A stretch of DNA of 64,000 nucleotides from Candidatus Dadabacteria bacterium UBA1144 (GTDB taxonomy: Bacteria > Desulfobacterota_D > UBA1144): contig DCAB01000012.1 in assembly GCA_002311855.1 (NCBI GenBank), positions 42,523-106,522 of the forward strand, in the 5' to 3' direction. Within the stretch, counting starts at the first letter, position 1. Each line of letters starts with the position of its first letter. The position numbers and the translations under genes were made by a program. The notes below the pieces were generated by a model. That model was not told the origin of the DNA and searched no databases. It saw only the letters and a program-made list of their open reading frames with translations. Positions 20,737-24,693 of the stretch are shown here, piece after piece.

Positions 20737-21084
20737 CTAAGTAGTAGACGAGCTACCAAACGAGCTACCAAACGAGCCACCATCTGAGGGTGCAACTGGT
20801 GCTACTAGAACCGCATCTTTACAAGATTTCGAAACTCTAAATTTAACAACTTTTTTCGCGGGAATTTGGATAGTTGCACCGGTTTGAGGATTTCTTCCTT
20901 GTCTAGCCTTTCGATCAACAAGTACTAACTTCCCTAGTCCTGGAAGAGTGAAGCTCCCATTGGCTTTAGCTTCATCACAAGCAAGGCTTGCAAAAGTATC
21001 CAGAAAACGACTTGCCTCAACTTTCGATATTTCCAATCTTCCAGCTAACGCTGCTGTTATCTGTGATTTTGTAAGTGCTCCCAT
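20737..21084 (-). CDS. HU/IHF-family nucleoid protein with atypical Ser/Gly-rich C-terminal tail
   Basis: 115 aa; HU arm signature ...RKARQGRNPQTGATIQIPAKKVVKF; about 25 extra C-terminal residues ...SDGGSFGSSFGSSSTT encoded by a tandem 12-nt repeat; locally higher GC. Confidence 0.8.
   Translation of the reverse strand: MGALTKSQITAALAGRLEISKVEASRFLDTFASLACDEAKANGSFTLPGLGKLVLVDRKARQGRNPQTGATIQIPAKKVVKFRVSKSCKDAVLVAPVAPSDGGSFGSSFGSSSTT
20749..20782. repeat. tandem 12-nt repeat (CGAGCTACCAAA, about 2.8 copies) inside the 3' end of the HU gene
   Basis: read directly: cgagctaccaaa cgagctaccaaa cgagccacca; it encodes the (SSFG)n tail on the minus strand. Confidence 0.8.
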
Positions 21085-21749: not shown

Positions 21750-21795
21750 GAAATCTTAATTATAAGTCATAGTTATTTTGAGTTAAAATAATCAT

Positions 21796-23109
21796 ATGTC
21801 AAAATTTCCACCGGGCGTCGACAGGGCTATAAATTATTCTTTTTTTGATGCTTTATATGAAAGGAGATCCAGGCGTTTCCCAATTGGTGGTAAGATTGAG
21901 GAAGGCCCATTGCAATATAAGTCTAATCATCCACCAACGTCATTAAGTGAGATTGAAGAAGCAATACTGGTTTGGAATGGCCTTGGGATTAAAAGCATAA
22001 ATCTTTCCGATTTTCCTCCGAACAAAGGGTTGGATTTAGAAGTAAAATTTACGAGCAAGACCATACCATCTTTAGGTGATATTCACCGGACCGAATTATT
22101 CTATACAAATGATTCTGGATTATATTTGGTAAAGCAACACGATAAATCACCATCTGATCTTAAAGGTATTGAAGCCCTAAATAAAGAAGAAAAGATTACA
22201 AAAATATTAGAACTTTTCGAAGAATCCAAAATAAAAATACATGATGGTAGAGCAAATCTTCCTACTACACCTCCTGGGCTTGCAATACATAACACCTGGA
22301 GTGTAAATATGCCCGGAACTACTCTAATGATTCCTGTGACGGATTTGTCAGCTGGCTTAATTAATATTTTATTTTTCTACATGCGAGAAGGGCATAGATT
22401 TAATTTTGTTGACGAGTTAAACAAAATGAAGCCTGCCGGGACTAAAAAATGGGTTGAAAATGGGTATATCGACGAAAAAAAAGTTGTTCCTTTAATTGAA
22501 GCTGAAGTTAGATTTGCTAACGGCTACATAGCAGAACAGCCTCTTTTTTGTCAGAATGTTGCACTAACTCAACAAATCCTAGGATTAGGAGGTTGGATGT
22601 TCAGTGGCTTTCAAAGCAGATATATCCTTGGAGCAGATGACCAGTTCAAAGGCCTGGGTTTTACATGTGTGGAAGCTAAAGATCAAGGAAGTGATTGGGG
22701 TGCAGCAGTATCAAAAGCACCAGTTGGCCTAGATGGTCATTTTGAGGCTTTTTGTCCCCCCTACTACAAAAATATGAACGAAGCGGTTGATGCATTCAAT
22801 GATATGAAGTGGAGCAACTGGGAAGAGAAGTTTATGCCTTACAAGGATCCCTCAGGAGTACTAAATGCTACTCCTAGGCCAAGTAAAGAAGAAATTCAAA
22901 TAGTTAAAGATATTTGCAATTATCTGTATGACACATATGGAAGATTCCCTGCATTTTCAGATGCAATGTATTGCAGAATGATGGTCCAATCACACCATCT
23001 AGATCTTGATTTCTACGATAAGTTTTATCCAGAAGGCGCTTATACAGACAATCATAAAAATCACTTTGAATTATGGCATCCTGGTATTATCAATCCGTTC
23101 AATAAGTGA
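21796..23109 (+). CDS. long nitroreductase-superfamily protein (SagB/ThcOx-like dehydrogenase fold), function unknown
   Basis: 437 aa; N-terminal RRSRRF (nitroreductase RxSxRxF); PSLGDIHRTELFY (compare SagB PSAGGxYPxExY); LGLGGWMFSGF (compare NfsA LGLGGVYIGG); locally elevated GC. Confidence 0.5.
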   Translation: MSKFPPGVDRAINYSFFDALYERRSRRFPIGGKIEEGPLQYKSNHPPTSLSEIEEAILVWNGLGIKSINLSDFPPNKGLDLEVKFTSKTIPSLGDIHRTELFYTNDSGLYLVKQHDKSPSDLKGIEALNKEEKITKILELFEESKIKIHDGRANLPTTPPGLAIHNTWSVNMPGTTLMIPVTDLSAGLINILFFYMREGHRFNFVDELNKMKPAGTKKWVENGYIDEKKVVPLIEAEVRFANGYIAEQPLFCQNVALTQQILGLGGWMFSGFQSRYILGADDQFKGLGFTCVEAKDQGSDWGAAVSKAPVGLDGHFEAFCPPYYKNMNEAVDAFNDMKWSNWEEKFMPYKDPSGVLNATPRPSKEEIQIVKDICNYLYDTYGRFPAFSDAMYCRMMVQSHHLDLDFYDKFYPEGAYTDNHKNHFELWHPGIINPFNK

Positions 23110-23696
23110 CTAGTAAATATATTGGAACTATAATTAATTTTACGATGTATGAACAACAGCCAGGATTAATGGAGCAAATTATTGTTGGGTATTCTGTGTT
23201 CTTTTTGGCAGTTATGATTGTCGCCCCGATTCTTACATATTTCTGTGTTGGAGAAAGAGCATATTCTGATTTACAGCCAAACCAAAGATATGCACCAGCC
23301 TGGAAACGTGTTGTAGCCTATATAATAGATATTGGAATTCTCTGGGTATTACAGAAAGCTATAGTATTTTTAATAGGCCTTCTCCTTCTTTTTTTTGGTA
23401 CATTTGGAATCGCAGCTTCCGTGCTTTTGGTTATCGGGAGCTTGTTTTTGTATTGGCTTTATTTTGTTTTATTCCATACTTCAAATCAACAAGCAACACT
23501 AGGGATGAAAGTAATGAAAATTAGAATTTATGATAATCAACATCAAAGATTAAATTTCTGGAGAGCAACCGGACGATTTTATTCTGCTCCTTTGTCAACA
23601 ACAATCTTATTCATAGGGGATATAATGGTAATCTTCACTAAGAGAAAACAAGGACTGCACGATTTAATAGCCAAGACAATTCACTTGGAAGACTAG
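23106..23696 (+). CDS. RDD-family membrane protein
   Basis: 196 aa; 3-4 TM helices; conserved R..D..D pattern (WKRVVAYIIDIGI ... KRKQGLHDLIAKT); start overlaps the upstream stop by 4 nt. Confidence 0.65.
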   Translation: MTSKYIGTIINFTMYEQQPGLMEQIIVGYSVFFLAVMIVAPILTYFCVGERAYSDLQPNQRYAPAWKRVVAYIIDIGILWVLQKAIVFLIGLLLLFFGTFGIAASVLLVIGSLFLYWLYFVLFHTSNQQATLGMKVMKIRIYDNQHQRLNFWRATGRFYSAPLSTTILFIGDIMVIFTKRKQGLHDLIAKTIHLED

Positions 23697-23697
23697 G

Positions 23698-24693
23698 CTA
23701 ATCCCAATCTAGAGAGCCAGCGGTTTGATATTCCGTAACCCTCGTTTCGAAGAAGTTCTTTTCTTTGGACAAATCAACAGATTGAGACATCCATGGAAAC
23801 GGATTCTCACTTCCGTAATGTTTACCAAGATTTATCCTTTCAAGTCTTCTATCTGCAATATATTCAACGTACTCGCAGAATTGTTCTGGGTTGATACCAA
23901 GAAGGCCATTCGGACAAGCATCATATGCATACTCTTTCTCAAAGTCTACTGCTTTGATTATCAGATTTGTAATATCGGACTTGAAATCTTCTGTCCAGAC
24001 AGTAGGATTCTCTTCTTTTATTGTGTTAATTAAATCACAACCAAATGCAAGATGAATACTTTCGTCTCTCATAATGTATTCAAACTGCTCACCAATACCA
24101 ATCATTTTATTCTGCCTTTTTAGTGCTAACATCATTGCGAATCCGGCATAGAAAAACACGCCTTCCATTATTACGTAATACCCCACTACGTCGTGCAAGA
24201 ATTTTTTTATATCTTCAGTCGAATTAATTGCAAAATTTGGATCCATAATTGACTTAGTGAGGTCAACTACAAAATCATCTTTTTGTTTAATAGAAGGTAT
24301 CGTTTCATACATATTGTATATATAGTCTGGGTCTAAGCCTAAGGTGTCACAACAATAAATAAATGTGTCTGTATGTACGGCCTCTTCATATGCTTGTCTA
24401 AGAAGGTATTGTCTTGCTTCAGGATTAGTCACATGCTTATAAACTGTCAACACTATATTGTTCGCAGTAAGAGATTCCGCGGTAGAGAAAAAACCTAAAT
24501 TCCAGAGAATCATTCTCCTTTCAACTTCTGATAAAACATTGTTGGATTTCCATTGTTCGACATCTTTCTGCATTGAAATTTCTTCCGGAGTCCAGTTATT
24601 CGCAACTCCATCTTTATAATGGTCCCTGGCCCACATATACGTCATTGGCAGTATTTTGTTTGGATCAGTTGAATTATTACTTAGAATTGACAT
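23698..24693 (-). CDS. nrdB: ribonucleotide reductase class I beta subunit (R2)
   Basis: Di-iron/tyrosyl-radical R2 sequence. Start set at Met 24693 (MSILSNN...), which has the RBS AAAGGAGA 8 nt upstream. The ORF-track start at 24729 would overlap nrdA. Confidence 0.92.
   Translation of the reverse strand: MSILSNNSTDPNKILPMTYMWARDHYKDGVANNWTPEEISMQKDVEQWKSNNVLSEVERRMILWNLGFFSTAESLTANNIVLTVYKHVTNPEARQYLLRQAYEEAVHTDTFIYCCDTLGLDPDYIYNMYETIPSIKQKDDFVVDLTKSIMDPNFAINSTEDIKKFLHDVVGYYVIMEGVFFYAGFAMMLALKRQNKMIGIGEQFEYIMRDESIHLAFGCDLINTIKEENPTVWTEDFKSDITNLIIKAVDFEKEYAYDACPNGLLGINPEQFCEYVEYIADRRLERINLGKHYGSENPFPWMSQSVDLSKEKNFFETRVTEYQTAGSLDWD

Follow-up and report, generated by a model that had tools for sequence, protein, structure and literature searches.

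Nitroreductase-superfamily proteins have repeatedly been found to perform unexpected chemistry, as in BluB, IYD, TyzC and the azoline oxidases. Within the superfamily, SagB, McbC, BmdC and ThcOx (TIGR03605) are flavin mononucleotide (FMN)-dependent oxidases of thiazole/oxazole peptide pathways. The Acg/TyzC "FDO" subgroup consists of monomeric oxidases of ~340 aa, of which TyzC desaturates N-acyl-Tyr (PMC10404671). Among RDD membrane proteins, Na+(Li+,K+)/H+ antiporter activity has been reported for one from Halobacillus andaensis (PMC5996927), which is the only experimentally characterised RDD member in the literature found. Here we analyse two adjacent open reading frames (ORFs), a 437-aa protein (ORF1) and an RDD-family protein (ORF2), on a 64,000-nt stretch of contig DCAB01000012.1 from Candidatus Dadabacteria bacterium UBA1144, hereafter called the window. 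An initial annotation had combined them into a module of a co-translated flavoenzyme and its membrane partner. The two genes are not a conserved two-gene system and were found together only in one marine Dadabacteria population. We consider it fairly probable that ORF1 is a stand-alone FMN-dependent oxidoreductase from a large unannotated nitroreductase clade, nearest to the SagB-like/structural-genomics branch, and that the RDD protein is an ordinary one, gained in this lineage and without a conserved partnership.

Predicted Fold and Family of ORF1

The nitroreductase/SagB-like reading of ORF1 in the initial annotation held at the level of the fold and failed at the thresholds of the family models. 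An AlphaFold2 model computed from a 40-sequence alignment (A1) reached a predicted local distance difference test score (pLDDT) of 86 and a predicted template modelling score (pTM) of 0.88, with pLDDT below 50 for residues 67-76 only. When this model was compared with the PDB by Foldseek, all matches were members of the nitroreductase superfamily (best match 3hoi, E 9e-4), and the closest structures were SagB-like or uncharacterised proteins, not NfsA/NfsB. The alpha+beta FMN-binding fold is present in the model, with the R-x-S-x-R and helix-GLG-strand elements at homologous positions. Approximately 260 residues, including the His/Tyr-rich C-terminal region, lie outside the aligned core, and for this part no other PDB fold was matched.

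Of the profile checks against Pfam, TIGRFAM and PDB that had been proposed, the one on the RDD protein was positive, whereas ORF1 gave no direct match: searches of Pfam and NCBIfam returned nothing at E<=1, PF00881 and TIGR03605 included, no PDB sequence was matched, and a family-profile search of the PDB yielded a best E of only ~2. PF00881 (gathering threshold 23.5 bits) weakly matched 3 of 40 close and 4 of 10 distant family members (E 0.002-0.02); ORF1 failed the threshold, and the best relative scored 18.9 bits. TIGR03605 (cut-off 78.4 bits) weakly matched five of the ten distant members over ~30 residues (E 0.002-0.04, 13-18 bits). Using hhalign, the family profile was aligned to E. coli NfsA with 77% probability (E 1.9e-5), and the alignment to NfsB was not significant. 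The PF00881, TIGR03605 and NfsA matches are all located on the helix-GLGG-strand motif. The model and these motif-limited matches support a nitroreductase-superfamily fold for ORF1, which is predicted to resemble the SagB-like branch.

All three motifs named in the initial annotation, RRSRRF, PSLGDIHRTELFY and LGLGGWMFSGF, are present (Table 1). In the first, R23, S25, R26, R27 and F28 are invariant in alignment A1, and R24 and R27 keep a conservation of 90% or more family-wide, down to 25% identity. Within PSLGDIHRTELFY, the invariant residues are H97, E100 and F102, with P91 and T99 almost invariant, and a strand at residues 99-104 is present in the model. LGLGGWMFSGF is the sole part of ORF1 that aligns at the sequence level with known nitroreductases (NfsA, 4dn2), and its G263 is invariant through the whole family. 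The C-terminal region contains CPPYY (aa 320-324), YGRFP (aa 381-385), HHLDLDFYD (aa 400-408) and WH (aa 427-428). The complete signature retained down to 25% identity comprises RRSRRF, EEA, GRT-PS, ND-G, R152, PGTT, D206, QN-L-QA-GLGG, LGF, CPP-Y, YGRFP, QAHHLD-FYD and WH.

A word-indexed search with ORF1 returned 496 relatives, all "hypothetical" and none with a Pfam domain. Relatives in Dadabacteria/Thermodesulfobacteriota and in Desulfofundulus thermocisternus are 45-87% identical to ORF1; the nearest genomic relatives are uncultured marine metagenome-assembled genomes of Dadabacteria/Thermodesulfobacteriota (for example, TMED58 and UBA1144) with 80-86% protein identity, and 547 species genomes of Dadabacteria/Thermodesulfobacteriota type contained matches to peptide patterns of the close clade. 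An exhaustive profile search gave 1,870 representatives of 50%-identity clusters at E<=1e-3, 920 of them at E<=1e-10, mostly full length (~420-480 aa). A remote clade, 30% identical to ORF1, comprises at least 1,639 90%-identity clusters, again all hypothetical, from Nitrospira, NC10, Actinomycetota, Rubrobacteraceae and Chloroflexota. ORF1 seems to belong to the core genes of a lineage and not to be a sporadic biosynthetic gene. One Thermodesulfobacteriota genome (contig OZ244991.1, 2.67 Mb) carries two paralogs at distant positions (loci L005 and L027), with 47% and 66% identity to ORF1; the family has therefore diversified within genomes. A remote-clade member of 477 aa (P0231) begins with a twin-arginine-like signal sequence (MKRRSFLALSAAG...), which suggests that some family members may be exported folded and cofactor-loaded.

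Conservation of the Gene Pair

An RDD hidden Markov model (HMM) was built from 73 homologs and run against every ORF of 50 aa or more in 174 loci. Its only matches were the window gene and loci L089-L091 of the same population. No RDD gene was detected in any of the 167 loci from other lineages that carry a family gene (86 of the Dadabacteria type, 79 of the remote clade and 2 others), for which at least 600 nt of sequence lay downstream in 142 and upstream in 146. Three loci added later were also without RDD, and no match was obtained when 88 loci were searched with the RDD protein by tblastn. ORF1 is 100% identical in all four assemblies with the pair and the flanking genes are the same, so that these assemblies represent one population and provide no independent evolutionary evidence.

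The surrounding DNA points in the same direction. Among the relatives, seven at 80-82% identity have a spacer of 26-142 nt between the ORF1 stop and the stop of convergent nrdB; in its place, the window has a 588-nt stretch with the RDD gene. Since nrdB directly follows the ORF1 homolog in those relatives, the 588 nt are extra in the window lineage. Where the window carries the RDD gene, a relative with 86% identity shows ~350 nt of non-coding DNA, and no flanking repeats that would mark a mobile element were found around the RDD gene. Relatives of ORF2 itself comprise one protein at 98% identity from the same population and a next one at 46%, without orthologs in between and without an ortholog series tracking Dadabacteria. 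The proposed module was therefore not sustained: the pair was not seen outside this population, an outcome that the initial annotation itself had named as telling against it. We infer that the juxtaposition of ORF1 and the RDD gene is incidental.

The RDD assignment of the second ORF was confirmed. ORF2 matched PF06271 over profile positions 1-137 of 137 (E 3e-24, 86.3 bits versus a cut-off of 24.1) and keeps the conserved Arg (WKR) and two Asp residues (IID, LHD), with hydrophobic blocks at aa 20-51 and 69-126. It is clearly predicted to be a standard YckC-type RDD membrane protein. ORF2 also matched the PADLOC model for PD-T4-6 at profile positions 334-469 of 476, the RDD-like C-terminus (E 2e-13). 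An assignment as a PD-T4-6 anti-phage defence protein was rejected, as the N-terminal ~330 positions are unmatched and ORF2 has just 196 aa; the two share a domain. Seen from the other side, this match indicates that the PD-T4-6 defence protein carries an RDD-like membrane domain.

Both ORFs were found with the boundaries and lengths originally given (Table 1), and the junction needed correction: in place of an ATGA overlap, the sequence (AAGTGACT; ...AAT AAG TGA CTA...) reads GTGA, with the TGA stop of ORF1 (23107-23109) overlapping a GTG (23106-23108), the first start codon past the upstream stop. In-frame ATGs follow 39 and 63 nt downstream of the GTG, at 23145 (Met14) and 23169 (Met22), which would give proteins of 183 and 175 aa and gaps of 35 and 59 nt to ORF1, respectively. 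No Shine-Dalgarno site is present upstream of the GTG; AGGA precedes the Met22 ATG, and the two nearest RDD homologs begin near the position of Met22. Judged from these features, both ATGs are as plausible as the GTG or more so. Clear Shine-Dalgarno sites occur in this genome on highly expressed genes only (sod, HU, nrdB) and so do not decide between the candidate starts of ORF2; translational coupling of the two genes is therefore no more than possible. Across the ORF1 stop lies a promoter-like sequence, GTGACT-17 nt-TATAAT, that fits at 10 of 12 positions; should it be genuine, transcription would begin just 5' of the ATG at 23145, and the RDD gene would have its own near-leaderless transcript. 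In promoter and terminator scans of the locus, matches were no commoner than in shuffled sequence.

The GC content of ORF1, described in the initial annotation as noticeably higher than that of the flanks, is raised marginally (0.377, with a sliding-window peak of 0.41, compared to 0.32-0.37 for neighbouring genes and 0.434 for the HU gene). At third codon positions (GC3), ORF1 with 0.299 lies inside the neighbours' range of 0.23-0.34, and both GC and GC3 of ORF2 agree with the host genome. That ORF1 might be foreign was considered in view of its GC content and rejected, since its GC3 is typical of the region.

Neighbouring Genes

A different, unannotated small protein recurs beside the ORF1-family gene in non-marine relatives. 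It has 75-82 aa, the consensus MKVxSPAGDFEIxV...GQMGVWDSxIY... and a hydrophobic C-terminal stretch; its homology is significant (pairwise E 5e-9; HMM E 1e-18 to 1e-22), and no Pfam match was obtained. It was detected in 40 of the 86 Dadabacteria-clade loci, there always convergent and 26 nt to 2.5 kb downstream; none was found in loci of the marine subclade, in the remote clade or anywhere in the 64-kb window. In a Desulfofundulus-like branch, the gene lies directly downstream and co-directional, overlapping the stop of the family gene in L001 and 17 nt (L177) or 28 nt (L178, L179) behind it. These two genes are followed by genes for an SDR protein (L177, L178), a CC_Se_fam protein (PF28096; L001, L177, L178) and a metallo-beta-lactamase-fold protein (L001, L178), which suggests a multi-gene operon around the enzyme and the small protein in this branch. 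An alpha/beta-hydrolase gene also follows the pair in L001. In some lineages, the ORF1 family may thus work with a true small partner, and this would not be RDD. In the sponge-associated Candidatus Mycalebacterium (L007), the family gene is overlapped at its stop by an 81-aa Cys-rich ORF with two CxxC motifs, which is related neither to RDD nor to the 75-aa family.

Clustering of flanking ORFs yielded no neighbour cluster common to the Dadabacteria clade and the remote clade. Recurrent neighbours in the Dadabacteria clade (def upstream, acyl-CoA synthetase, FAD monooxygenase, 2-hydroxyacid dehydrogenase downstream, and aroE) look like inherited synteny. In the remote clade, the neighbours are a mixed group of oxygenases and oxidoreductases, with TauD, nitronate monooxygenase, SRPBCC, P450, SnoaL, FAD_binding_4 and glyoxalase each found in 3-4 of 125 scanned neighbours. 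In two remote-clade loci, the gene immediately upstream of the family member encodes an MpaB/Lcp-type (rubber-oxygenase-like) oxygenase, and in the 863-aa protein P0256 such an oxygenase is fused N-terminally to the family domain. Another member (L094) adjoins genes for an animal-type heme peroxidase and a patatin, and up to 6 of 78 remote-clade loci have cytochrome P450 genes beside the family gene. These arrangements hint at a connection between the family and heme oxygenases that use lipophilic substrates.

None of the loci examined showed a YcaO, cyclodehydratase, ThiF or precursor-peptide context, and azoline-pathway genes were missing among the genes of the window population, the gene-called loci and the top 25 Pfam families of the 125 remote-clade neighbours. 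The 10 largest neighbour clusters belong to other families or have no Pfam match. In the window, the gene order is sod, ilvD, coaBC, HU(-), pyrE(-), ORF1, RDD, nrdB(-), nrdA(-), mscS; as the initial annotation had observed, none of these neighbours is a YcaO or precursor gene. The stop of nrdB is 1 nt away from that of the RDD gene. Promoter-like matches are present in the intergenic region upstream of ORF1, yet they are no commoner than in shuffled sequence. The HU-like DNA-binding gene stands out by its GC content, noticeably above that of its neighbours, and its product ends in a low-complexity, Ser/Gly-rich tail (...APVAPSDGGSFGSSFGSSSTT).

Table 1: Coordinates of features in the window and, where preceded by a locus number, in other loci with an ORF1-family gene.
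Feature	Coordinates	Strand	Remark
ORF1	21796..23109	+	437 aa, ATG start; predicted nitroreductase-superfamily-fold protein; large unannotated family, ~440-aa members
RRSRRF, aa 23-28	21862..21879	+	position of the canonical N-terminal R-x-S-x-R FMN-phosphate motif of nitroreductases
PSLGDIHRTELFY, aa 91-103	22066..22104	+	SagB-reminiscent P-S...E-L-F/Y segment; leads into first core strand
LGLGGWMFSGF, aa 262-272	22579..22611	+	with upstream QN...L...Q helix, canonical nitroreductase helix-GLGG-strand motif
Family-specific C-terminal region, ~aa 313-437	22732..23106	+	CPPYY, YGRFP, HHLDLDFYD, WH motifs
ORF2	23106..23696	+	RDD-family (YckC-type) small membrane protein (predicted); 196 aa from GTG 23106
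GTGA overlap of ORF1 TGA stop and first possible ORF2 start (GTG)	23106..23109	+	read from sequence
Promoter-like match	23106-23134	+	overlaps ORF1 stop
AT-rich divergent intergenic region, 46 nt	21750..21795	.	between pyrE (-) and ORF1 (+); presumed ORF1 promoter region
HU-like gene	20737-21084	-
nrdB, ribonucleotide reductase beta subunit	23698..24693	-	convergent; context boundary
75-82-aa protein gene	L058:6361-6588	-
75-82-aa protein gene	L079:7297-7548	-
75-82-aa protein gene	L001:7254-7493	+
75-82-aa protein gene	L177:1367-1612	+
75-82-aa protein gene	L178:5307-5555	+
Follow-on gene stretch	L177:1618-2663		Desulfofundulus-like branch
Follow-on gene stretch	L178:5561-7253		Desulfofundulus-like branch
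Follow-on gene stretch	L001:7518-9391		Desulfofundulus-like branch
81-aa Cys-rich ORF	L007:6314-6559	+
MpaB/Lcp-type oxygenase gene	L095:757-2172	+	abuts family-gene start at 2172
MpaB/Lcp-type oxygenase gene	L097:4064-5467	+

Discussion

For ORF1 as a stand-alone oxidoreductase, we infer flavin binding, redox chemistry and a dimeric state. RRSRRF, which from general knowledge of NfsA/NfsB we take to be FMN-binding, would bind the FMN phosphate, and the P-S...H-T-E and QN...GLGG segments would line the isoalloxazine ring of the flavin. By analogy with the superfamily, the protein probably forms homodimers in which the flavin sits between the subunits. The family-specific insert together with the His/Tyr-rich C-terminal region (CPPYY, YGRFP, HHLDxDFYD, WH) may form a substrate pocket or lid, and the substrate is probably a small hydrophobic or aromatic metabolite, not a ribosomally synthesized and post-translationally modified peptide (RiPP). 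The RDD gene would have been gained recently, only in the lineage of this marine population, and would sit in what was a short spacer between convergent genes. Marine Dadabacteria are reported in one study to be genome-streamlined; the tight spacing would stem from such a compact genome, with read-through co-transcription plausible to probable.

Several observations weigh against this reading. On the side of the enzyme, residues 67-98, beside the putative flavin-contact segment, are poorly modelled, just ~170 of the 437 residues map onto the known fold, and sequence similarity to known nitroreductases is limited to ~35 residues. As to the RDD gene, it lies on the same strand as ORF1, at most 59 nt away and with a possible 4-nt overlap, and the arrangement is intact in all four assemblies of the population. 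Moreover, streamlined genomes tend to shed useless DNA, which leaves room for a lineage-specific functional link between the two genes.

ORF1 could instead be a classical NAD(P)H-dependent nitro/quinone reductase of the NfsA/NfsB type with extra decorations, in line with the hhalign match to NfsA. We regard this as unlikely, because the protein stays below the PF00881 threshold, NfsB did not align significantly, the closest structures are of the SagB-like or uncharacterised kind, and the ~260 residues outside the core carry strongly conserved motifs specific to the family.

A rather more doubtful explanation returns to the module in a lineage-specific form, with the RDD protein co-translated with the flavoenzyme in the marine population and tethering or partnering it at the membrane. 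The shared strand, the possible GTGA overlap and the four intact assemblies are what this would predict, and since relatives of the enzyme often adjoin a different small protein with a hydrophobic tail, a membrane partner is not implausible as such. However, the pair is missing in all 167 loci of other lineages, the relatives at 80-86% identity included, the start codon of the RDD gene is uncertain, the RDD protein lacks an ortholog series, and the four assemblies with their identical ORF1 count as one population.

We give still less credence, as a highly improbable variant, to the idea that the ~440-aa family is an undescribed nitroreductase-fold class with a small membrane-associated partner, namely, the 75-82-aa protein in non-marine Dadabacteria and the Desulfofundulus-like branch, and newly acquired RDD by non-orthologous displacement in the marine lineage, where the 75-82-aa protein is missing near the gene. 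If true, it would make the notion of a flavoenzyme plus small membrane partner right in spirit. A role of ORF1 as a SagB/McbC-type azoline dehydrogenase in a RiPP or nonribosomal peptide synthetase pathway with the remaining genes elsewhere can be practically dismissed, given the gene contexts described above and alignment A1, in which a non-rigorous look, made without a structure-based McbC/BcerB alignment, showed no obvious counterpart of the catalytic Lys-Tyr pair of SagB before the QN helix.

With the two-gene system not upheld, nothing new is learned from the locus about RDD proteins or about flavoenzymes coupled to membranes. What makes it worthwhile is the enzyme family, which is very large and phylogenetically broad, falls outside Pfam and NCBIfam, is called "hypothetical" in every source naming its members and has been retained even in a compact marine genome. 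As a new clade with a conserved small partner and recurring oxygenase neighbours, in a superfamily that has so often surprised by its chemistry, it represents a reasonable target for enzyme discovery, and with Desulfofundulus thermocisternus a cultured host exists.

Compared with the described systems, ORF2 shares with the RDD family (PF06271, B. subtilis YckC type) the full-length domain, the Arg and two Asp residues and the hydrophobic blocks, and differs by an extra N-terminal hydrophobic helix common only to its two nearest homologs. Antiport activity is known from a single distant member of the family only. ORF1 differs from SagB, McbC, BmdC and ThcOx in failing TIGR03605 and in having its own C-terminal motifs CPPYY, YGRFP and HHLDxDFYD. 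The structural-genomics nitroreductases BT_0217 (8cqs), Reut_A1228 (3hj9), BF3017 (3hoi) and Ava_2154 (3eo7) are 11-15% identical to ORF1; the first three have 190-215 aa and Ava_2154 has 487 aa, and all are without the insert and the C-terminal region of ORF1. They transfer no function to ORF1 because their own substrates are unknown, and a literature search found no natural function for BT_0217. Membership of ORF1 in the Acg/TyzC "FDO" subgroup was rejected, as neither the monomeric duplicated ~340-aa fold nor the frequent ThiF partner or fusion of that subgroup was found for it. What the ORF1 family has in common with these proteins is that both consist of enlarged, atypical members of the nitroreductase superfamily that were long called hypothetical.

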